From positions 1-33,071 of the forward strand of contig JAWXCN010000055.1 of NCBI GenBank assembly GCA_034408725.1: DNA of 33,071 bases. Direction: 5' to 3'. The translations under genes were made by a program, and so were the position numbers. Shown piece after piece: positions 3,802 through 32,747 of this stretch (position 1 is the stretch's first letter; each line of letters begins with the position of its first letter). The notes beneath the pieces are model-generated. The model was not told the DNA's origin. It was given only the letters and a program-made list of their open reading frames with translations, and did no database searches. The stretch comes from Candidatus Hydrogenedentota bacterium. GTDB taxonomy: Bacteria; Hydrogenedentota; Hydrogenedentia; Hydrogenedentales; SLHB01.

Positions 3802-4362
3802 CTAGTTTCCGAGGACTTTCGTCAAAAAATCGTCTTCTTTTCTATTCTGCTCAATTTCGGGAAGTTCATTCTCGCGACCGATGGCAACCACAATATCTTC
3901 AAGGGGATTGTTTTTGCTTGAAGCGCCACGCTTGTTCTTGCTTACTTCGGGTAAATTTCCAACGTAATCGAGCATCTGCTGCAACGACTTGTCTTTATAC
4001 TGTGCGAAGATTGTCTGCAGTTTTTTCACTTCGTATTCGGACAGGTACGAGGTATCGGGGTGGCTCTTGAGGACGAGATCGTAGCCCCGCGTTTCAAAAA
4101 ATTTATTCCAGTATTCGCCCTGTTCGTCCGAAATTTGCGGGGACTCGCGAATCAAATCACAAATACGGCTCAACACGGGACCACGGGGCATCGCGACTGG
4201 CGTGTCTCCGCTGATTGGTTGTCCGACTTCCTTCAAACTTTCCCGATCCGCGAGATAAAGCATCTTGAGCAGCATCGTGTAGTTAAATCGGTGGTTGGGG
4301 GCGTCGCGAAGTATGACACCGACTTCCTGGACGACCTTTGACAGGCGGAAAGTAAAGGACAT
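3802..4362 (-). CDS. Panacea-domain (DUF4065/SocA-like) antitoxin
   Basis: LLKMLYLADRESLKEVGQPISGD...AMPRGPVLSRI is the Panacea signature (L.K.LY...GPV). GGAG RBS precedes ATG at 4362. The track's longer N-terminus overlaps the flippase. Confidence 0.88.
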   Translation of the reverse strand: MSFTFRLSKVVQEVGVILRDAPNHRFNYTMLLKMLYLADRESLKEVGQPISGDTPVAMPRGPVLSRICDLIRESPQISDEQGEYWNKFFETRGYDLVLKSHPDTSYLSEYEVKKLQTIFAQYKDKSLQQMLDYVGNLPEVSKNKRGASSKNNPLEDIVVAIGRENELPEIEQNRKEDDFLTKVLGN

Positions 4363-4381
4363 TGTGGTCTCCGTATATAAA

Positions 4382-4390
4382 AGTATATCA
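4382..4390 (-). promoter_or_regulatory. Extended -10 element (TGaTATACT) for the Panacea pair
   Basis: Minus strand reads tgtgaTATACT, about 20 nt upstream of the ATG. Confidence 0.5.
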
Positions 4391-4424
4391 CAGTACGGGG
4401 CGTGAATACTGAAAATACGTTCTG

Positions 4425-5687
4425 TTATTTCGTCTGCGTGATGGCGAGAGCATAGGTCAGGACGCCTGCGCCGCCCTTCACCAGTGCGACGGTCCAGGCC
4501 ATGCCGATAACTCCGAATCGGGGCACGAAGAGAATTCCGCCGATCAGGATGCCGGCCAATTTCGCGAATTCGATCAATGCGATGCTGCGCGATTTGCCGA
4601 GGCCGTAGAGGGCCGCGCCGGCGGGGGCGCTGCCGACGGCAAATGCGGCGCCGACGAGGAGAATCGCGAAGAGATGGCCAGTTTGCGCGTATGCAGCGCC
4701 GAAGGTCAGACGCGCTACGATGCCGGAGCATAGCGTCAATATTACGAGGCTTAAAAAGGCGAATAGGGTGGGCATGCGAAATCCGCGGAGGAACGCGCGC
4801 AACTCATCGCGTGTGGCCAAACTGCTTGCGTGCGGGAGGAGGATGGTGAACAGGGTCACGTTCACGAGATCGCCGAGCAGGGTGAGTTGGAGCGCAGCGC
4901 CGTAATCACTGATGGCTTCGGCGGGAAGTTTGTAGGCCGCGACGATGAAGACGTCGAGCCGTTGAAGGAGACTCGTACACAGGCAGGCTACCGCGACCCA
5001 TTTCGCGAAACCGACCAAGTCCCGCCATATGCGTGGTTCAATGGAAACGCGAGGTGTTGATGGCAGCCAGAGGGATGCCAGTGCGGCAACCAGAACGGGG
5101 GCGGCGGTATACGCGAGGAAAAGATTGCCGATGGAATCGTGTTGTGTGTATGCGAGCGTTGCTATGGCCGCGAGTCGAAGCAAGGCGGATGCAACTTCGA
5201 ATACGGCGCATGCGGTGAAATGTTGCCGGGCCTGAAAACAGGCGGGGACGTACATCGCAACGATCATCAGTGCCGCGCCGGTAAAGGCCAGGGCGAGGGT
5301 GGAAAGGAAGACCTCGACGCCTTCGCGGGCAAAGACCAGATGATGCAGAGGGATGAGGATCGCGGCGCCCATGAGCAGGGTTACAGCAGCAAGCAGTAAC
5401 TTGGCGCGTAGAACTGCGCGGGCGTAGGCGGCGGCATCGGCTGCGTTGTCTTTTGCCGCGCCGGAAAACCGCACGAGCGCGATGTCCAACGCGGGGCTGA
5501 AAAGTTCCGCGGCGACCTTCACGATCGTTATCAGGATAACGAAATCGCCGTAGTGCGCGCGGCCGAGGGTCCGGCCCAGAATAGCAATCACGAGGAAGGT
5601 GGCGGCGCTCGCGACAACGCGCGCGATGAAAAGGGAAGAGAACGAGGCCAGCCAGGAAGCGCGCGGCTTCGCGGGTGTCTGGGTCAC
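4425..5687 (-). CDS. Oligosaccharide flippase (Wzx/MOP superfamily)
   Basis: About 12 TM segments, RTLGRAHYGDF, RLDVFIV and VPRFGVIGMAW. GTGA overlap with the upstream gene. Confidence 0.88.
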   Translation of the reverse strand: MTQTPAKPRASWLASFSSLFIARVVASAATFLVIAILGRTLGRAHYGDFVILITIVKVAAELFSPALDIALVRFSGAAKDNAADAAAYARAVLRAKLLLAAVTLLMGAAILIPLHHLVFAREGVEVFLSTLALAFTGAALMIVAMYVPACFQARQHFTACAVFEVASALLRLAAIATLAYTQHDSIGNLFLAYTAAPVLVAALASLWLPSTPRVSIEPRIWRDLVGFAKWVAVACLCTSLLQRLDVFIVAAYKLPAEAISDYGAALQLTLLGDLVNVTLFTILLPHASSLATRDELRAFLRGFRMPTLFAFLSLVILTLCSGIVARLTFGAAYAQTGHLFAILLVGAAFAVGSAPAGAALYGLGKSRSIALIEFAKLAGILIGGILFVPRFGVIGMAWTVALVKGGAGVLTYALAITQTK

Positions 5688-18068: not shown

Positions 18069-18737
18069 TCACTCCTTTCTGAACCGGTAGCCGACGCCCC
18101 GAATCGTTTCAATCAAGGAGTCGCCTGGCGCGTCGAGCTTTTTGCGCAGCCGTTGTATGTGTACGTCAACAAGGTTCGTGTTCGGATCAAAATCGTAGCC
18201 CCACACATGTTCGAGAATTTGCGTGCGCGTGTAAACGCGCCCCGGCGCGCGCATCAGGTATTCCAACAATTCGAATTCACGCGCCGTCAAGCGCACGTCC
18301 TTTTCGTTGCGGGTGACCTCTCGCGTCACCAGATTGACGGCGAGCCCTTCGGACTGCAGAATCGTTAACGTCTGCCCACTAGAGCGCCGCCCCAACGCGT
18401 GCAAACGCGCGATCAGTTCTTCGACGTAGAAGGGCTTCGTAAGGTAATCATCGGCCCCAAGGTTGAGTCCTTCAACCCGTTCATCAAGCGCGCTGCGGGC
18501 GGTCAGCAATATTACCGGTACTGCGTTCTTCTTCTCGCGTAGTTGGCGCAATACACTCAAGCCGTCTCGCCCCGGCAGCATGATGTCGAGCACGACAACG
18601 TCGTAGGTGTGCGTACTCGCGCGGTCCAACGCATCGTCGCCGTTATCGCAGATTTCGACGGTGAATCCCGCTTCGTCCAGCCCCTTTCTGACGAATTGCA
18701 AAATTCTCTGCTCATCTTCGACAACAAGCACTTTCAT
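18069..18737 (-). CDS. OmpR-family response regulator (CusR/CzcR-like)
   Basis: VLVVEDE, LDIMLPGRDG, GADDYLTKPF, VWGYDFDPNTNLVDVHIQRLRKK and IETIRGVGY. Confidence 0.96.
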   Translation of the reverse strand: MKVLVVEDEQRILQFVRKGLDEAGFTVEICDNGDDALDRASTHTYDVVVLDIMLPGRDGLSVLRQLREKKNAVPVILLTARSALDERVEGLNLGADDYLTKPFYVEELIARLHALGRRSSGQTLTILQSEGLAVNLVTREVTRNEKDVRLTAREFELLEYLMRAPGRVYTRTQILEHVWGYDFDPNTNLVDVHIQRLRKKLDAPGDSLIETIRGVGYRFRKE

Positions 18738-18773
18738 GGCGCGGAGTATAACACCGGCGCGCGCGCCCGAATC

Positions 18774-18789
18774 ATTACAGAATCTTCAT
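18774..18789. promoter_or_regulatory. Candidate CusR/CopR/CzcR-type operator ATTACA-gaat-CTTCAT
   Basis: Imperfect palindrome of the AT[T/G]ACA-N4-TGT[A/C]AT type, lying between the regulator and the divergent gene. Confidence 0.5.
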
Positions 18790-18878
18790 GTTTAAGCGTG
18801 TCTGCCGTTCATCATGCCGTGTCACAGTTTCGCTGGAACAGCGCGCAGCCGCGCAATAACAATGGAGGATACGAAGCC

Positions 18879-19520
18879 ATGAAACGAGTGATAAAGCAGG
18901 ATAGGACACGGCGCATGTGCCACGCGGCAACTACGCTGGCATGTGCCGCATGGTTACTAATGGCGCCCGCGACGGCATTCGCGCAGAACGATGCGCCGGC
19001 GCCACCCGAAGAACACTTCGCCGCGCCGCCTTCTTCTGCAACGCCCTCGGATGATGGGATTGCGCCACCGCCTCCACCGCCTCCTCCTCTTCCGCCTTCC
19101 CGTGACGACAGCAACAATCCGCCGCAGCCGCCGGCGCGACCGCAACGTTTCGAGCGGGGTGATCGACCTCATCCAAACTATCCATCCGATGCTCCCCGCC
19201 ATCACGACGACGTTCACGCGCCACATGGGGACGACGCCGAGTTTCCGCCCATGTCCCCGGACGGTGAGAAAGGTGACGGCCCGCGGCGCCATGGATTAGG
19301 TGGACCCGGCATGCCACCACCACCGCCGGAATTTGAAGACTTCGACACGAACGGCGATGGCAGCATCTCCCGCGCGGAATTCGACGACATGCTCGCCCGG
19401 CGTCCACACCGTCCAATGCATGATAGACGTCCAGATCGGGAACGTCCGGGCGGGAAAATAGACCAGCACGGGCACGAAGGCGATATGCCGCGGCGCCCAG
19501 TTTCGCCTGACCGTCCGTAG
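18879..19520 (+). CDS. Secreted Pro/His/Asp-rich protein with an EF-hand
   Basis: GGAGG RBS, signal peptide ending ATAFA-Q, polyproline tracts and a canonical EF-hand loop DTNGDGSISRAE. Confidence 0.82.
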   Translation: MKRVIKQDRTRRMCHAATTLACAAWLLMAPATAFAQNDAPAPPEEHFAAPPSSATPSDDGIAPPPPPPPPLPPSRDDSNNPPQPPARPQRFERGDRPHPNYPSDAPRHHDDVHAPHGDDAEFPPMSPDGEKGDGPRRHGLGGPGMPPPPPEFEDFDTNGDGSISRAEFDDMLARRPHRPMHDRRPDRERPGGKIDQHGHEGDMPRRPVSPDRP

Positions 19521-19578
19521 CAGCGGCGCGACGTCCCGCCTTGTGAGATTCTGTGCGGGGCGGGACGTCCCCAGCTAC
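19517..19578. repeat. GTAG...CTAC-bounded inverted repeat (REP doublet-like / bidirectional terminator) between convergent genes
   Basis: GACGTCCCGCC (19530-19540) pairs with GGCGGGACGTC (19559-19569). The GTAGC and GCTAC ends contain the stop codons of both flanking genes. Confidence 0.65.
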
Positions 19579-19958
19579 GATAGATACTCGTTCAGAAGTG
19601 ACTCGATGCGCGAACGGTGGTCGCCCTGAATCTCGACAGTGTTCTCACGTGCCACGCCGCCCGCCCCGCAACGTTTCTTGAGGAGGTTGAGCAATGACTC
19701 GGCATCACCACTCACATTGCCAATGATGGTGACCACTTTCCCGCCGGGACGTTTTTCGATCGAGAGCGGCATGCCACCCTTGCGCGTCTTCTGTATCGAG
19801 AATGGTGCGGATGATTTCGGACGCACGATCTCCGCGATGGGTTTGGGTGGTTCCGGTGCGGTGTCCGGCAGCTCGGGCTTCAACGCCGCGAGCGCACCGA
19901 AAGGGTTCGACGTAAGACCTTGCTCGTCACCGGACTTGTCTGGGCGATGAGGTTTCAT
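19575..19958 (-). CDS. yciH: Translation initiation factor SUI1/eIF1 family
   Basis: NPFGALAAL, EKRPGGKVVTII, LKKRCGAGG and VEIQGDHR. Confidence 0.88.
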   Translation of the reverse strand: MKPHRPDKSGDEQGLTSNPFGALAALKPELPDTAPEPPKPIAEIVRPKSSAPFSIQKTRKGGMPLSIEKRPGGKVVTIIGNVSGDAESLLNLLKKRCGAGGVARENTVEIQGDHRSRIESLLNEYLS

Positions 19959-19999
19959 CGTGTTTTGGCGTACGGCGGCATCCACGCAGTCGTGAATAC

Positions 20000-20038
20000 A
20001 AATGAAACACGCCGCACGTGGATATCGCGTGCGGCGTG
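20000..20038 (-). terminator. Intrinsic terminator ending the small-peptide operon
   Basis: 11-bp stem CACGCCGCACG / CGTGCGGCGTG (20008-20018, 20028-20038), followed on the minus strand by TTTCATTT. Confidence 0.75.
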
Positions 20039-20061
20039 CTTATGCCTTTATGCCGCGCGGG

Positions 20062-20175
20062 TTATGTCCACCAACGCGCGAACATGTCAATAAATGCGAA
20101 TTCCGCCGGAATAAGTCCGCGGAATACGAAGCTCGAAAATGCGGTCCCTTGAAGCAGAATGTAAATCAAAAGCAT
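20062..20175 (-). CDS. 37-aa hydrophobic peptide (not in the ORF track)
   Basis: AAGAGGGG RBS, then MLLIYILLQGTAFSSFVFRGLIPAEFAFIDMFARWWT*. It fills the gap between the upstream ORF and the terminator. Confidence 0.6.
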   Translation of the reverse strand: MLLIYILLQGTAFSSFVFRGLIPAEFAFIDMFARWWT

Positions 20176-20202
20176 GGTTCGGATTCCCCTCTTAATTAGT
20201 CT

Positions 20203-20472
20203 TTAGCGAGTGCCGTCGCCATCACCGTCGCCGTCACCATCTCCGTCGCCACCCGTGCCGTCACCGTCTCCACCACCGCCGCCACCGCCGCCGAAAAATC
20301 CCTTGTAGGGAATGCCGTCGCCCACGTCGAATACGAAATTGTTGACCTCGCCAAAGAAGCGGTAAAAATTCGACGCGTAAACAAGCAGCGTTTCGTACTT
20401 CAGTTGCTGCACGGTTTGGGCAACCGCCGGTTCGCGTGTAATCTTCCTCAAATGCACTTTCGATTCTTGCAT
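20203..20472 (-). CDS. 89-aa small protein: basic leader, Phe-rich core, Gly/Asp repeat tail
   Basis: AGGAAGG RBS, RKITREPAVAQT leader and tail G8-DGDGTGGDGDGDGDGDGDGTR. Confidence 0.75.
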   Translation of the reverse strand: MQESKVHLRKITREPAVAQTVQQLKYETLLVYASNFYRFFGEVNNFVFDVGDGIPYKGFFGGGGGGGGDGDGTGGDGDGDGDGDGDGTR

Positions 20473-20527
20473 GTTAGCCTTCCTGTAAAAAGTTGCGGTC
20501 GAACGACGCGAAGAATTGGTTGCTCAT

Positions 20528-20725
20528 CTATGCTTCTTCTTCATCATCCGGGAAAATGACTTCGAAAAATGTGCCCAACGAAAGGGAGTTGAAAAACAGC
20601 GAGCCAAATATAACGGCTGAATTCTGGGTTACCATGCTCGAAAGTTCCTGCTTGAAAAATAACTTCGATGCATAGGCGGACTGCGCCTTGGCCGGGCGCC
20701 GCGAAATTGCCTTCGTATGCTTCAT
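20528..20725 (-). CDS. 65-aa small protein: basic leader, Phe-rich core, acidic tail
   Basis: GGAGG RBS before ATG 20725. Sequence MKHTKAISRRPAKAQS...FFEVIFPDDEEEA. Confidence 0.72.
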   Translation of the reverse strand: MKHTKAISRRPAKAQSAYASKLFFKQELSSMVTQNSAVIFGSLFFNSLSLGTFFEVIFPDDEEEA

Positions 20726-20937
20726 CCCCGTGATTCCTCCCAGTTGGCTCGCTCGAGCCGTTGCTCGTGTTTGTGCTTGGGCTCCCCGGTAATCGGGATG
20801 CGCGCACACCACAACGTCGTCAACCAATTAATCTATCCCGCGCACTGAACGCCAGCGCCGGGAATTCGTTTTTCAGGCCCCTTAAAACGCTGTCCAATCC
20901 GAACTTTCATGCTCCATTACAATCCGGTTGGCCCTTT

Positions 20938-20968
20938 ACTATACACCCTGAACCATGATTTGTGTCAA
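20938..20968 (-). promoter_or_regulatory. Candidate sigma70 promoter for the peptide operon (TTGACA-N19-TATAGT)
   Basis: Perfect -35 and 5/6 -10, but a long 19-nt spacer. Confidence 0.4.
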
Positions 20969-21011
20969 CCGTACAATTATCGGATTGCGCATTTGAAAAT
21001 TTTGGCCCCTT

Positions 21012-22655
21012 TCACAACTGCGGACCAGCCACCTCCGCCAGCCGTTTCCCTTCCGGTGTCATGTCAAACCGTTTGAAATTGGTGATGAACATTTCGGCCA
21101 GCTTCCGCGCCATTCCATCGTATTCGCCTTTGTCGCGCCAGTTCTCGCGCGGGTTCAGGATATGCCCGTCCACGTGCCGCACCGCTCGGGGGATTTGCAA
21201 GCCAAACAGCGGCATCTCATCGTACCCCGCTTCGGAAAGAGAGCCGTCCAATATCGCATCAATGATATGCCGCGTGTCAGCCAACTCAATTCGGTGTCCC
21301 GCCCCGTAACCACCCTTGATCCACCCCGTATTCACCAGATAGGCCTCAGCATGGTGCTCCCGCATCTTCGTACCGAGTATCGTCGCGTAGTCGGTTGGAT
21401 GGACAGCCAGGAAAGCCGCGCCGTAACACGTCGAGAAAGTCGCCTTCGGTTCCGTTACGCCAAGTTCCGTGCCTGCCACTTTCGCCGTATACCCGCTAAG
21501 ATACTGGTACATCGCTTGATCCGGAGTAAGTTTGGCTACCGGAGGCAGCACGCCAAATGCGTCGCACGCCAAAAATATGATGCGGTTCGGGTGCCCCCCG
21601 CGCGACACCGGCTTGACGATATTCGGAATATGATAAATGGGATACGATACCCGCCCATTCTCCGTCTTGCTGATATCTTCAAAATCCACGCTGCCGTCGT
21701 CCCGCACTTTCACGTTTTCGAGCAAAGCGTCTCGCCTGATCGCACGGTAAATGTCCGGCTCGTTTTTTTCGGACAGGTGAATGGTCTTGGCGTAGCAACC
21801 ACCTTCAAAATTAAACACGCCGTTCTCATCCCATCCATGTTCATCGTCGCCGATCAGCAGTCGATTCGGATCCGCGGACAACGTAGTCTTCCCCGTCCCC
21901 GATAAACCAAAAAACAGCGCCGTGTCGCCCTTCTTCCCCATATTCGCGGAACAATGAAAAGCCCCGATCCCCCGCAGCGGCAGAAAGTAATTCATGATGG
22001 TGAAGATGCCCTTTTTCATCTCCCCGCCGTACCACGTCCCGCCAATCACCGTAAGCCGTTCCTGAATGTTGAATGAAACAAACACCTCCGAATGCAGCCC
22101 CCACTTCTCCGCGTCCGGGCACGAAGTCTTGCTCGCGTTGAGAATCGTCCAATCCGGTTTGAACGCCGCAAGCTCTTCCTCAGACGGACGGATGAACATG
22201 TTCTTGCAAAAATGCGCCTGCCACGCCACCTCCGCGATGATCCGCACCGACAACCGCGTATCGGGATTCGCGCCGCAAAACCCGTCTATGACGTACAGGC
22301 GTTTACCGTTCAGTTGTTCAACCGCTATTTCTTTGAGATGCGCCCACGTCTTCTCGGTCATCGGCGCGTTATTGGACCCGGGATGATCGGGCGTCGCCCA
22401 CCACACCGTATCGCGGCTAGACGCCTCCTCGACGATGTATTTGTCCAGCGGAGATCGGCCGGTGAATCGGCCCGTATCCACGGCGACCGCCCCAAAACTC
22501 GTCACCACACCGGCTTCATGCCCTTCGAGATTCGGGTCGGTTTCATGCTCAAACAACACGTCATACGAAGGATTGTGAAAAAGTTCGCTCCACTCTGTTA
22601 TACCAACCGTCCGTAAGTCCGGTGCGACACGCAACGGCAGTCCTCCAGAGTCCAT
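21012..22655 (-). CDS. pckA: Phosphoenolpyruvate carboxykinase (ATP)
   Basis: [42 protein letters not shown] and [17 protein letters not shown] before ATG 22655. Confidence 0.97.
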
Positions 22656-22786
22656 GCAATTTTCTCCTTTTCCGATTTCCACCTGCGGATTGTAACAAAT
22701 ACAGTGTTGCTTTACCGCCAAACTCTTGATAGCATTCGACACCGGATTCCCCGCATACAGCGCAAGTTGCGCATCCAAGGAGCATT

Positions 22787-27987: not shown

Positions 27988-28118
27988 TTAAGATTCTCCG
28001 CCAAGGGGTTTCGTGCGGACAGACTCAACTTCTTTTTTAGCGATTGACAATTGTCGCGGAATCGTAATCCGTTCTCAGCTAACGGACTAGTGTAACGGGA
28101 TGAATGGAGGTTCATAAG

Positions 28119-31100
28119 ATGGTTGCCCACGTCAGTCGCGGTTCCTTTATAAAAGGCTGTTGGCTAGTAGTCCTCGCCTTAATTTCAAGCTTCGGTTTGA
28201 CGGCAACCGCAAGTGTCATACCGACGCAAGGCAACTGGTCCAGCCCAATAGAGGTTCTCGACGAAGAACCAGATTTTTTTACAGTTGAGATACCGATACC
28301 ACTAGGCGCAACTAGGGTGGAGCTAAGTGTAAACGGGGAAGACTACGGATGGCCAGCGATTGATAATATTAGCGATGTTGCAAAGTTTTTTGTCGATGGT
28401 CATTATCAGGTCGAGATTAGCTGCGCACCGGCTAAGGGTAATGCAACAATATCAAATCTAGCGGGGGGCGGGACCTTACAGGCTAAGTTTTTCGCTTGCA
28501 GTACGAGCATAAATTATGAAGACCATGACTCCACCATAAAGTGGATGTTCGATTTTAGGGATTCATATAACAATCCTGTTGAGGATGAGCCTGGTAACTG
28601 TGAGCCGCATTGCGATACTTTTTGCGGCGGCAGGACAGCGCTGGAATGCGGCATCGATTTTATCTCCGATGCCGCGGAGGAGGTTGCTCGAGTAACGGAG
28701 GAAGTCTGGGGAATACTCAAGGGGGTCTACGGCGATGATATTAATCCCGATAGTCAGTTTGTGGATATCTGGTCCGCACCTGGAACCAAGCCCATCATGT
28801 ACCGCCCATTTTGGGGCAGGGCTCTTGGCCCTCACTGGATCGAGGCACCTACATTCCCAGAGGTAGAATCGGATACCGTAGACTTTATGGCTGGCTGCAC
28901 AGCTTCTCACGGTTGTGACGACTACCGTTGGTTTCTGGAACGATTGGATCCAGACGTTGGATTCGTGCCAGTACAGACGTTCCCGCCGTCCGAGGACGAC
29001 CCCAGATTTGAGAACGGCGAGTATATGACAAAGAATGCATTCACCCGAATGCCCGGTTTTAACTGGGACGGCACGCTCTATCGCTCAAAAGTATACCAAT
29101 CCGTTCAAGACCGCCATGAATGGACTCTAGAGCATGATGACTGGAAGTATTTCTTCAACGGCATACCGGATACCCCCCCCGTACCGCCCGCATTGATTTC
29201 TCCAAGGAACGGAGAGGTGGCCGGCGGTAACTCGGTTGTGTTTGTTCTGCAAAACCGAGGCACCGAGATGATGCACCCGGCATTCAAGTATCGCGTAGAA
29301 GTGTACAAGGCAAATCCAGACGGAACGATACCCGAGGGAACCCAATTGAATGAGAATGTCAATTGGTGGATTCTGGGTCCTGATCAAATCAAGGTTCGAA
29401 GTCGCGGCAACGTACCTCCGATGGGTTTTAACATAGAACCTTTTGAACTTCAAAACGATACTGCTCTCTACTATTGGCGAGCCCTTGCTACGTTCGCACC
29501 CGATTTCAGTAACCCCAATAAGGTGACGAGCAGCAAAATCACCGGCTTCAATACCACAAAATTGAACCAAAGCGGGACCAGGTTTAGCGCGTATGGGCAA
29601 AATGTGGATATGTATAACACGACTTCTGTAGTCGGTGCGCCATACACTGCAATTGGCTTTCAGGAACAAATTGGCGAGGTGACAGTTTTCGAAAAAGTGA
29701 ATGACACATGGGAAGACGTCGCAAGTCTGCTCCCGGATACGCCGGAGGAATATGATCAATTCGGATACGACGTCGCACTCGGTGACAGGCGCCTTGTTGT
29801 CGGTTCGCCGGGAAGAGGAGACTTTGGGCGCGCCTTAGTGTACACGCGTAGTGCAACCGGCTGGAACTTGTCGCAAACGTTTGGGCCCGGCTTAACCGAA
29901 ACTACTAATCCTTTGTTCGGTCGTTCAGTGGAGATCGATGGTCTTACTGTATTGGTCGGCGCTCCGAACGGTTTCAATGGCAAAGGCATTGTCTACTCGT
30001 TCGAAATAGGTAGCGTCGGTGTAGATAGAACCATTATTGCTAGAGACAGCTCTGGAAACCCTGAGGGACAAATAAACGGCGAATTCGGCGCCTCACTGGC
30101 TATTTCAGGCGGAGACCTGTTCGTCGGAGCACCGCGGGCAAATAATCAGGATGGTTTGGTCTACGTCTATCATCGCCAAGGGTCGAACTGGGTGCAAGAC
30201 TCCAAGATCAGTCCCCCAATTAGCGGACTGGCCGAGCATTTTGGCTACGCGCTGAGTATTGAAGGTGGAACACTGATGGTCGGCGCGCCAGGCGAGGACG
30301 TCTATCACCTGGCGATGAACCCCGACACTGGGGGATTCTTTAAGTCCGCACAGAACAGTTCCGTATATGTATATGAAAAGCAGGCGGAAGAGTGGGAACT
30401 AATCAGAGAACTACCGACGGACAATTTGGAAGCCGACGCCGCCTTTGGGTTCGACGTCGCGCAATCGCCAGGACTCTTGCTTGTTGGTGCTCCCGCCAGT
30501 GATCCAACGGGCCTGCCAGGCTCGAATATAGGAAGCGTACCGGTATTTCTCCGTGCGGCTCCGAGTCCCGTGTCTATTTGGTCGCAAATAACCACGCTTA
30601 CGGACCATGGCATAAACCAAGGAAATCATGGCGCCGAAGACGCGCAATTTGGCAGCAGCGTCGCTCTTTGGGGGCACAGTGCTATTATCGGGGCTCGATA
30701 CGACCGTTACGAGTTCGATGGGATTGAAAACCTTTTGCCCGAAGATAAACATCCTCTTGAGAATGCAGATATCGGTGGCACATCAGGTTGGAAATGTTTT
30801 CATAGCGTGATAAATGAGTGTAGTCACAATTGCCTTGTAACCAATACGAGCACGACGACGCGCCAAGATGTACAACTACCAGATTACCTTGCGCCTTTAA
30901 TTGATGTCGGAGGGCTATCTGTCCGATTTGGCGGCACTGCAGTTCGAATAGGTGGGGGTGATAATATTCCAGCCGACTTCGTGCTCCATTTTTATGACGG
31001 TACTGCTTTCCCGAGTCTCGATTGCTCCGATGAAAGCATTGGAAATTTCTTACGCGAAGAGAGAAATCGCGTCCTGATAGCGGAGAACACTCCTTGCGGT

Positions 31101-32747
31101 TTCGAAGCGAATCCCATCGAGGTTGCGGTACCACCCTTCACGCGCTGGATCCAATTTCGCATGGAACAGGTCAACAATCAAGACTGGGCCGGGACAGACT
31201 TGCAACTAGAGCTGATCCAGTCGGATCGGCGTGGCACGGTGTCCTTCACTGATATAGATACCGTTCCGCCAGTCGCGAATATCATCGCAGCTGAACCAGC
31301 CTATCTCACAAATCAAAACAGCCTAACGTTTACGGTCATATTTAGCGAGCCGGTTCGAAATGTGAATGCGGAGAATCTGATTGTTGAGGTCGATGGGAGT
31401 ATCTTGCATGATAATCCACTAATCGCATCAATAGATGAAGGCAAGATATGGGAGGTTGTACTAACGGGCATTAGTGGGAATGGAAACATACACTTAAGAG
31501 TTTCAGATTCTTCCGCGAAAAGCGCAGCCAAGATTCAAGACCTTGCCGGAAATAACTTGGTGGCAACAGTGAAGAGCACAGTAAGGATTGATCAGACTGC
31601 GCCTGCCTTATCACGAAGTTTTGTCGTCAGCCAGCCTAGAGCTTCAGCCGGACAAACCTTGCAGATTGCACTTACTTTGGCCGAAGATCTGAGAAGGCCC
31701 CCGATACTTACTATCAACGGGAATGAGGCGACAGTCATTTCTGCGATCACCGGAGAGGCACCAGATTTCGAGGTTGATTACATCTTTAAATATACCGTGA
31801 CGAATACGGACGATATTGGTCCTGCAACCCTACACTTCCAAGCTGCAGACGACGCTGGCAACCCGCTACGCCTAGTTCGTGACAATCTAATCACAATAGA
31901 CCCGCCGGCACAAACGCATTCGCTCACGATCCAAAGTTCTCCGGATACAGGAGCGGCGATCGCCGTCAGTCCGAACGATAACACGTCGCAAGGAAACGGC
32001 ACGACCAACTTCACGCGAACATACAACCACAATGCCGCGGTGCAATTGACGGCGCCAGCAACGTTCAACGGCAAGACATTCGTTCGCTGGAACAAGGACG
32101 GCGTACAACACGCAACAACTCCTACCACGTCAGTGACGATGGATATTAATCACACCATGGTAGCGGTCTACCAGACATCAACCCGCACGCTGACGGTGCA
32201 AAGTTCTCCGGATATCGGCACGGCGGTCATGGTGAGCCCGAACGATAACAGCGGGCAAGGCAACGGCACGACCAACTTCACCCGCACGTACAACCAGAAC
32301 GCCGCGGTGCAATTGACGGCGCCAGCAACGTTCAACGGCAAGACGTTCGTTCGCTGGAACAAAGACAGCGTACAACACGCAACGACTCCTGCCACGTCAG
32401 TGACGATGGATATTAATCACACTATGGTAGCGGTCTACCAGAGCATTAATTCAATTACAGTTACTAAACCTAACGGAGGTGAGGCGTGGAAGAAGGGAAC
32501 TCGCCGAACCATTACGTGGCTCAAATCGACTAATTCGGGTGCAAATGTAAAGATCCAACTAAAGCGAAAAGGCGCGATTGTAAAGACTATTGCAACTAGT
32601 ACGCCTAATGACGGTAGTTTTTTATGGACCGTGAACAGTGATCTTTTGGTCGCACGCGGCTATAGAATCTGGGTGACAAGCACAACCAATGTACAAATTT
32701 TAGATTCCAGTGACGGCACGTTCAAGGTCAAAAAAGCGGCAAAGTAA
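28119..32747 (+). CDS. Large secreted multidomain surface protein: novel N-terminal region, seven FG-GAP repeats, Ig-like domains, two InlB-B-like repeats, C-terminal 'PNGGE' Ig-like domain
   Basis: Signal peptide (WLVVLALISSFGLTATAS), seven FG...GAP-type blades, FTVIFSEPV...IQDLAGN Ig-like domain and ITVTKPNGGEAWKKGTRRTITW. Start 28104 or 28119. Confidence 0.9.
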   Translation: MVAHVSRGSFIKGCWLVVLALISSFGLTATASVIPTQGNWSSPIEVLDEEPDFFTVEIPIPLGATRVELSVNGEDYGWPAIDNISDVAKFFVDGHYQVEISCAPAKGNATISNLAGGGTLQAKFFACSTSINYEDHDSTIKWMFDFRDSYNNPVEDEPGNCEPHCDTFCGGRTALECGIDFISDAAEEVARVTEEVWGILKGVYGDDINPDSQFVDIWSAPGTKPIMYRPFWGRALGPHWIEAPTFPEVESDTVDFMAGCTASHGCDDYRWFLERLDPDVGFVPVQTFPPSEDDPRFENGEYMTKNAFTRMPGFNWDGTLYRSKVYQSVQDRHEWTLEHDDWKYFFNGIPDTPPVPPALISPRNGEVAGGNSVVFVLQNRGTEMMHPAFKYRVEVYKANPDGTIPEGTQLNENVNWWILGPDQIKVRSRGNVPPMGFNIEPFELQNDTALYYWRALATFAPDFSNPNKVTSSKITGFNTTKLNQSGTRFSAYGQNVDMYNTTSVVGAPYTAIGFQEQIGEVTVFEKVNDTWEDVASLLPDTPEEYDQFGYDVALGDRRLVVGSPGRGDFGRALVYTRSATGWNLSQTFGPGLTETTNPLFGRSVEIDGLTVLVGAPNGFNGKGIVYSFEIGSVGVDRTIIARDSSGNPEGQINGEFGASLAISGGDLFVGAPRANNQDGLVYVYHRQGSNWVQDSKISPPISGLAEHFGYALSIEGGTLMVGAPGEDVYHLAMNPDTGGFFKSAQNSSVYVYEKQAEEWELIRELPTDNLEADAAFGFDVAQSPGLLLVGAPASDPTGLPGSNIGSVPVFLRAAPSPVSIWSQITTLTDHGINQGNHGAEDAQFGSSVALWGHSAIIGARYDRYEFDGIENLLPEDKHPLENADIGGTSGWKCFHSVINECSHNCLVTNTSTTTRQDVQLPDYLAPLIDVGGLSVRFGGTAVRIGGGDNIPADFVLHFYDGTAFPSLDCSDESIGNFLREERNRVLIAENTPCGFEANPIEVAVPPFTRWIQFRMEQVNNQDWAGTDLQLELIQSDRRGTVSFTDIDTVPPVANIIAAEPAYLTNQNSLTFTVIFSEPVRNVNAENLIVEVDGSILHDNPLIASIDEGKIWEVVLTGISGNGNIHLRVSDSSAKSAAKIQDLAGNNLVATVKSTVRIDQTAPALSRSFVVSQPRASAGQTLQIALTLAEDLRRPPILTINGNEATVISAITGEAPDFEVDYIFKYTVTNTDDIGPATLHFQAADDAGNPLRLVRDNLITIDPPAQTHSLTIQSSPDTGAAIAVSPNDNTSQGNGTTNFTRTYNHNAAVQLTAPATFNGKTFVRWNKDGVQHATTPTTSVTMDINHTMVAVYQTSTRTLTVQSSPDIGTAVMVSPNDNSGQGNGTTNFTRTYNQNAAVQLTAPATFNGKTFVRWNKDSVQHATTPATSVTMDINHTMVAVYQSINSITVTKPNGGEAWKKGTRRTITWLKSTNSGANVKIQLKRKGAIVKTIATSTPNDGSFLWTVNSDLLVARGYRIWVTSTTNVQILDSSDGTFKVKKAAK
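31921..32442 (+). repeat. Intragenic tandem duplication, 267-bp (89-aa) period
   Basis: CAAAGTTCTCCGGATA at 31932 and 32199, and GCGGTCTACCAGA ending at 32175 and 32442. The two units are near-identical. Confidence 0.95.

Follow-up and report, generated by a model that had tools for sequence, protein, structure and literature searches.

The 33,071-nucleotide (nt) contig JAWXCN010000055.1 of a Candidatus Hydrogenedentota bacterium (assembly GCA_034408725.1), which we call the window, carries on its minus strand a group of three small genes, named here A, B and C, that are the subject of this work. To our knowledge, Hydrogenedentota is a widespread phylum that is known from metagenome-assembled genomes alone and whose cell biology is essentially uncharted. 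Small proteins of this kind are routinely missed or labelled as hypothetical. An original prediction, made from the letters of the DNA, had proposed at this place three co-oriented open reading frames (ORFs) of 65, 89 and 37 amino acids (aa), each with a ribosome-binding site, closed by a single intrinsic terminator; all of these elements are present (Table 1). The Shine-Dalgarno (SD) sites are purine-rich and stand 5-11 nt before each start codon. As for the terminator, our scan caught part of the hairpin, and the complete stem was read directly from the sequence. On the same strand, the three genes are flanked upstream by pckA (PEPCK_ATP, 22778..21012) and downstream by a SUI1/YciH gene (19985..19575).

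Table 1. Features of the A-B-C locus, in window coordinates.
Feature	Position	Strand	Remark
Gene A (alpha type), 65 aa	20725..20528, stop included	minus	SD GGAGG, 20740..20736
Gene B (beta type), 89 aa	20472..20203, stop included	minus	SD AGGAAGG, 20484..20478
Gene C, 37-aa hydrophobic peptide ending WW-T	20175..20062, stop included	minus	SD GAGGGG, 20191..20186
Candidate promoter, conserved hexamers	-35 TTGACA 20968..20963; -10 TATAGT 20943..20938	minus	19-nt spacer
5' leader, about 205 nt	20931..20726	minus	transcription start inferred
Second conserved box GGTTGAC	20825..20819	minus	inside the A-B-C leader
Intrinsic terminator	20038..19998	minus	11-bp G+C-rich stem, 9-nt loop, then TTTCATTT; read from sequence
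Same terminator, 3' tract in feature-table form	20038..19998	minus	TTTCATTTGT; partly listed by scan

The candidate promoter with a leader of roughly 200 nt, also part of the original prediction, was recovered as well. Both of its hexamers are invariant in an upstream alignment of seven genomes from two genera, in which the surrounding sequence has diverged, and of 44 distinct loci, 17 have the same arrangement upstream of the A-B pair. The combination TTGACA-N19-TATAGT is unique in the genome, where the other consensus-like promoters mostly have 17-nt spacers; it is absent from our consensus-scan list because the scan allows only spacers of 16-18 nt. Judged by these signals, A, B and C are one self-contained, autonomously transcribed operon. 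All eight sequencing runs that were listed are of DNA, none of RNA. The 5' leader has no unusual structure (folding z-score -0.21), and an Rfam search of 19900..21100 returned no leader family, just two sub-threshold matches lying over the terminator; a structured regulatory leader, which we had considered, was dropped on the folding score. The heptamer GGTTGAC occurs twice, at the -35 box (20970-20963) and about 145 nt downstream in the leader, and both copies are conserved in the seven-genome alignment. The repeat may represent a pair of operators or an additional promoter; in that alignment, the downstream copy is not followed by a conserved -10.

That the three ORFs are clearly real genes is indicated by the way in which their sequences have changed. 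In comparisons with the nearest relative, the proportion of changed sites was 0.26 (non-synonymous) against 0.74 (synonymous) in A, 0.18 against 0.78 in B, and 0.15 against 0.86 in C; synonymous sites are saturated in all three, whereas non-synonymous sites are not, a pattern that argues for coding-type conservation, and by this measure A, B and C are under purifying selection. Orthologs of A and B are adjacent and in the same order in all four same-genus genomes and in further genera, and C is conserved in eight aligned sequences.

A and B are built on one plan, and the layout that had been described for them (a basic N-terminus, a core rich in Phe, and a tail that is acidic or of the Gly-Asp kind) stands. 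Their common N-terminus, which had been seen as well, reflects common descent: A-type and B-type profiles align with an hhalign probability of 97.3% (E 2.5e-11), and the two genes are therefore paralogs. The shared part is an N-terminal tail, basic and some 16 residues long, M-[KR]-H-x-[RK]-x-[IV]-[ST]-[RK]-x-P-x-x-A-Q-[ST], hereafter the module, after which comes a stretch like L-Q-V-K-L-D-F; in most members, the core is then followed by an aromatic-Lys motif (P-[YW]-K in the B type). The first 16 residues have a net charge of +5 in A and +2 in B, without any hydrophobic stretch. The His and the Pro of the module are invariant in a 25-sequence alignment and almost invariant family-wide, and among 38 aligned pairs, position 8 bears a hydroxyl residue in all 38 first-gene and in 37 of the 38 second-gene proteins; in some lineages, Thr, Ser, Val or Lys takes the place of the Gln in A-Q-[ST]. 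When the 5.17-Mb genome was scanned in six frames, the motif put forward by the original prediction was found exactly twice, both times at this locus, and never in the reversed-translation control. The His is residue 3 in 36 of the 38 first-gene proteins, and its distance from the start varies in the second-gene proteins; given this variation, an X-X-His N-terminal metal site was not taken up. Head-to-tail cross-linking between Gln and Lys was likewise set aside, the Gln not being conserved in one genus.

Beyond the module, the two genes of the pair differ. The first (“alpha”) is 41-46 aa long in its minimal form; it begins with M-[KR]-H and often ends in F-x-F-x-K-[TG]. The second (“beta”) encodes about 65-95 aa; its core ends in R-Q-x-P-W-K (P-Y-K in the lineage of the window), the positions corresponding to P55 and K57 of B being invariant in 21 beta sequences, and it usually adds a low-complexity tail rich in Gly, Thr, Asp, Ser and Asn, which in B is a Gly/Asp tail. 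AlphaFold2, run with family alignments, predicts one helix for each protein, over residues 17-47 in A (mean pLDDT 70, with blocks of 80-87 over residues 21-40) and residues 15-53 in B (mean pLDDT 60), with residues 1-15 extended in both; the A-Q-[ST] triplet therefore falls at the start of the helix, and on these models a helix cap is no worse a reading of it than a point of cleavage. As a side observation, 18 of 38 distinct beta-type proteins (loci L040-L089) have a hydrophobic residue at the very end of the tail, in many cases preceded by an acidic one (endings such as L-E-I, T-E-I or G-F-F; B itself ends in G-T-R). Such a C-terminus resembles a short docking tip.

The prediction that A and B belong to a family peculiar to their lineage, united by one N-terminal module, is supported. 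A family profile built from 25 A- and B-type sequences (alignment A4) matches 104 of the 133 genomes of the order Hydrogenedentales, which is nearly the whole phylum in our genome set, at E<=0.01 (73 of 84 when genomes at least 90% complete are counted), and 92 of 135 phylum genomes at E<=0.001. At the former threshold, the family is near-universal in some family-level lineages (46/53, 14/15, 6/6 and 20/23 genomes) and rare in two (3/14 and 4/10). An exhaustive HMMER search of 1.84 billion representative proteins yielded 96 clusters at E<=0.001, every one of them 39-123 aa long, so that fused or multidomain forms do not occur among them. By BLASTP, all 96 clusters match Hydrogenedentota loci; for 47, the identity is at least 50% across 60% or more of the length of the cluster protein. 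Four of 17 protein matches carry a name, in each case “hypothetical protein [Candidatus Hydrogenedentes bacterium]”, and three of five related loci have Candidatus Hydrogenedentota or Hydrogenedentes titles. Among all matches that can be placed taxonomically, the family is confined to Candidatus Hydrogenedentota. One contig labelled as uncultured Nitrospiraceae (L094) holds a full A-B-C trio together with the convergent kinase gene described below; this combination is typical of one Hydrogenedentota genus, and the contig is therefore probably misbinned or mislabelled.

Libraries of known families gave no name to these proteins. In Pfam, A and C had no match at E<=0.1, and B had one low-complexity match far below cut-off. 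Nothing significant was returned for the 25 members by NCBIfam (best E 0.045, in one member), PADLOC (best E 0.033, in one member) or PHROGs (scattered single matches, best E 0.00045 in one member), nor by a search of PDB sequences (best E 5.1). A cluster look-up of nine proteins, eight of which were found, produced no name for any of the eight. In the ESM Atlas, the best feature score for B was 0.77, below a meaningful level, and A had no usable feature match; the structure matches there were short helical look-alikes, to which we give no weight. In the single-protein search, the Gly/Asp tail of B drew many spurious matches to large repeat proteins, which we disregarded. Judging from sequence, A and B belong to a protein family that is undescribed in the libraries and literature searched: the main text of a study of Hydrogenedentota genomics (PMC11406978), supplements aside, mentions no RiPP, bacteriocin, pilin, small or hypothetical protein, or peptide, and a limited literature search on Hydrogenedentes small proteins and Hydrogenedentota genomes found no description of the family.

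Genomes hold two to four copies of the family. In the genome of the window, single-protein searches of its own contigs found no further paralogs; with the profile, two more came up on other contigs, the third at E about 1e-4 and the fourth, a weak match, at E 0.029. The third (G000 contig C7, 45847-45990, plus strand; locus L083, 8845-9042) adjoins a DUF494 (Smg-like) gene and has orthologs in two same-genus genomes, and the fourth is on the minus strand of contig C141. Both have the same N-terminal module on strongly hydrophobic Gly/Ala/Thr-rich cores and are likely membrane proteins.

The family is organised in tandem: at least two copies in a row, the first mostly shorter than the second, were seen in 46 of 50 fetched loci (some of which represent the same place twice), and the gene order is fixed across the 38 distinct aligned pairs. 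The core lengths of the two partners covary, with a Spearman coefficient of 0.87 over 37 pairs, uncorrected for shared ancestry, from about 25/25 residues in the minimal forms to about 40-60 in the extended ones. A predicted complex of A with residues 1-64 of B, each with its own alignment, scored 0.00 in both of two uncontrolled runs, a result that speaks neither for nor against binding. C follows the pair in 12 of 44 distinct loci, belonging to three genera only, and is missing from the other 32; these three genera are those whose alpha has an extra hydrophobic F-x-N-x-L-x-L-G segment, and C is a later addition to the pair.

We then surveyed the surroundings of 18 annotated A/B loci, from at least seven family-level lineages, over a reach of about 5.5 kb. 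In 11 of them, a minimal Ser/Thr kinase gene (Pkinase, 276-288 aa, kinase domain only) lies directly downstream of the pair in convergent orientation, an adjacency that spans at least five family-level lineages; rsfS stands beyond the kinase in 11 of the 18 loci, and gatB, gatA and gatC are found further out. On the other side of the pair is an ABC-F ATPase gene in 7/18 loci and a PEP carboxykinase gene in three, as well as in the window; tyrS is also among the neighbours in relatives. The setting of the pair is thus a housekeeping one (pckA or an ABC-F ATPase gene facing a convergent gatCAB-rsfS-kinase group), neither mobile nor biosynthetic. No radical-SAM enzyme, cyclodehydratase, lanthipeptide enzyme, exporter or secretion gene was found in the 18 loci, which agrees with the earlier statement that no modifying enzyme or transporter adjoins the genes; as for peptidases, a single locus has one nearby, a Peptidase_M6/Calx-beta protein at a distance of about 2 kb. 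For the third paralog, an Rce1-like protease lies about 1.8 kb off in one genome.

Two further situations bear on the link between the pair and its neighbours. In the genome of the window, the rsfS-kinase operon is on another contig, without small genes and beside an unrelated gene, so that the operon and the pair need not adjoin. In two genomes of a lineage without the family (G088 and G086, loci L102 and L103), pckA and the kinase gene stand tail-to-tail, 8-25 nt apart; as this syntenic slot is empty, the absence of the family there is real and not a failure of the search. Seen from these two loci, the small-gene cassette is a clean presence/absence difference at one intergenic site. One other “negative” genome has no rsfS match, and the region is therefore probably unassembled there.

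The explanation that we prefer, tentatively and without quite expecting it to be right, is that A and B stay in the cell unprocessed, pair with one another through cores of matched length and use their tails to dock on a conserved partner. Alpha and beta would be neither cleaved nor exported, and the A-Q-[ST] triplet would cap a long amphipathic helix. The two proteins would lie side by side through their cores, the lengths of which change together from lineage to lineage, and the assembly would be located in the cytoplasm or at the inner face of the membrane; in the lineage of the window, the hydrophobic C and the extended segment of alpha may provide a hold on the membrane. The working part would be the two near-identical basic tails, docking onto the putative partner. 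Export by known routes is unlikely because the first 16 residues are charged, a hydrophobic stretch is lacking and no Pfam model matches; we found no Sec or Tat signal in A or B, residues 1-16 being polar or basic with Pro and no hydrophobic run following directly.

Several observations weigh against this explanation. One has to keep in mind that a single long helix is a frequent model output for orphan peptides, that the confidence of our models is modest at the mean values given above, and that the stretch after the tail (L-Q-V-K-L-D-F and its like) alternates hydrophobic and polar residues in the manner of a beta-strand. The covariation of lengths being uncorrected for ancestry, lineage history alone could yield it. 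With regard to the membrane, the highest 19-residue hydropathy is 1.46 in A (peak at residue 36) and 1.50 in C, both borderline next to the usual threshold of about 1.6, which makes the leaning weak; that of B (0.57) shows a core too polar for a membrane helix, and the third paralog reaches 2.04. The family is rare in the two family-level lineages noted above, and its absence with an empty slot implies that it does not serve a universal core function. Finally, a shared N-terminal module, an aromatic-Lys motif and Gly/Thr/Asp tails also fit leader-bearing precursors or surface proteins.

This last point leads to the opposite view, which we consider unlikely and still worth weighing: the 16-residue N-terminus would be recognised by a machine encoded elsewhere and cut at or near A-Q-[ST], releasing exported filament or surface subunits, or precursors resembling ribosomally synthesised and post-translationally modified peptides (RiPPs) or cofactors, for example by way of the aromatic-Lys pair. 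A near-fixed N-terminal module common to paralogs with different cores is what one would expect of such precursors, as are small proteins (39-123 aa) in two to four copies per genome; P-[YW]-K is invariant in the 21 beta-type sequences and F-x-K occurs in many alpha-type proteins, Gly, Thr and Asp abound in beta tails, as they often do in extracellular linkers, and one prepilin peptidase gene and two genes with C39-peptidase domains exist elsewhere in the genome. The notion of a conserved leader with a variable core was nevertheless right in one half only: cores do differ between paralogs, but within orthologous groups they are conserved with motifs of their own, under purifying selection, and are not hypervariable. 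The locus, moreover, is fixed in its housekeeping neighbourhood across at least five family-level lineages, the machinery expected nearby is lacking in the loci surveyed, and the Gln of the supposed cleavage site tolerates the substitutions listed above. The proposal of a class III (pilin-type) signal has to be given up. Such signals are recognised by a Gly at -1, some 20 hydrophobic residues after the cleavage site and a Glu at +5; A and B share with type IV pilins their small size and a short N-terminus of positive charge, in a genome with a prepilin peptidase gene, but they have no Gly at -1 (the sequence is A-Q, in relatives also A-T, A-V or A-K), no helix of some 20 hydrophobic residues, no Glu at +5, Lys, Gln and Glu within ten residues of A-Q-[ST], and no Pfam N-methylation or pilin match. 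Precursor families of the Nif11 and nitrile-hydratase types, in which a shared leader is encoded away from the enzymes, offer a parallel, with several small genes, a conserved N-terminal module, differing C-termini and no enzyme adjoining; the A/B module, however, is just about 16-24 residues long and does not end in a double glycine, orthologous cores are conserved, the genes keep to one housekeeping locus, searches of Pfam and NCBIfam brought up no leader family, and the genome (92% complete) has no match to the PqqD-type domain (PF05402), a domain that not all RiPP classes need. A further reading, which we think quite unlikely, makes of the 16-residue module a phylum-specific address tag for a putative machine, with alpha and beta as its dedicated clients; from these, a surface structure of two subunits might be built after export, or a peptide-derived product made out of the conserved aromatic-Lys pair. 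If this is true, the tag would represent a leader or signal of a new type, without relative in current libraries.

Other explanations concern the identity of the partner or the use of the pair. Two of them are variants of our preferred explanation, in-cell pairing with tails that dock, and differ from it by naming the partner. In one, a long shot in our opinion, [IV]-[ST]-[RK]-x-P would be phosphorylated or bound by the neighbouring Hanks-type Ser/Thr kinase, and alpha and beta would be regulated adaptors; the near-universal hydroxyl at position 8, flanked by [IVLM] and a mostly basic residue and with Pro at +3, is suggestive, as is the convergent kinase gene directly downstream in so many loci and lineages. 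Convergent genes are not co-transcribed, however, and the adjacency may be inherited synteny; the kinase operon of the genome of the window is on another contig, and the kinase stays in place in the two genomes without the family. In the other variant, a slightly longer shot still, the basic tails would have ribosomal RNA or a translation factor as their binding target. The operon does lie in a translation neighbourhood (SUI1/YciH in the window; gatCAB, rsfS, the ABC-F ATPase gene and tyrS in relatives), and it has a conserved near-consensus promoter, good Shine-Dalgarno sites and a long 5' leader, a combination that is also found in many ribosomal-protein operons; against this, basic residues are limited to the first 16 positions, the rest being hydrophobic or acidic, the leader has no unusual structure, and two lineages of the phylum lack the family. 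An operon in which a small hydrophobic ORF comes after two amphipathic peptides, both small and related to each other, also recalls class IIb two-peptide bacteriocins, with C as a small immunity protein, an idea to which we give very little credence: there is no leader ending in a double glycine (GG, GA or GS) and no C39/ABC exporter in the 18 loci, the two C39-domain genes of the genome being on other contigs, the locus occupies one conserved chromosomal site phylum-wide instead of varying between strains, and C, restricted to its three genera, is missing from most loci. WXG100/Esx pairs, lastly, are likewise tandem paralogous small proteins, predicted to be helical here, with lengths that change together, a layout that suggests a heterodimer; A and B are smaller, though, and have no WXG motif, no Pfam WXG100 match and no type VII secretion genes in the 18 loci.

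Candidate phyla have many small orphan proteins that are conserved. A and B stand out among them by their sharp motif, their regular paired layout and their wide spread within the phylum, most of which has kept the pair at one chromosomal site with a 16-residue N-terminus that is almost fixed across family-level lineages. The sharpness of the motif makes it a tractable entry point, as a synthetic peptide of the tail could be used to fish for the partner. If the tail is indeed a targeting or modification signal, it would be a new class of one; if it is no signal, it would still be a lineage-specific structural or regulatory module.

Three other genes of the window may be mentioned. On the minus strand, 3802-4731 encodes a SocA/Panacea-domain (antitoxin-like) protein within a polysaccharide-synthesis cluster (Wzy_C, Polysacc_synt, Bac_transf). 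On the plus strand, a proline-rich ORF with an uncertain start (18543-19520), divergent from a two-component regulator pair, has one C-terminal EF-hand match below the Pfam cut-offs. Further along the same strand, 28104-32747 encodes a 1547-aa protein with FG-GAP repeats, Listeria-Bacteroides repeats and a Kre9/KNH-like Ig domain, which is probably a large surface protein.

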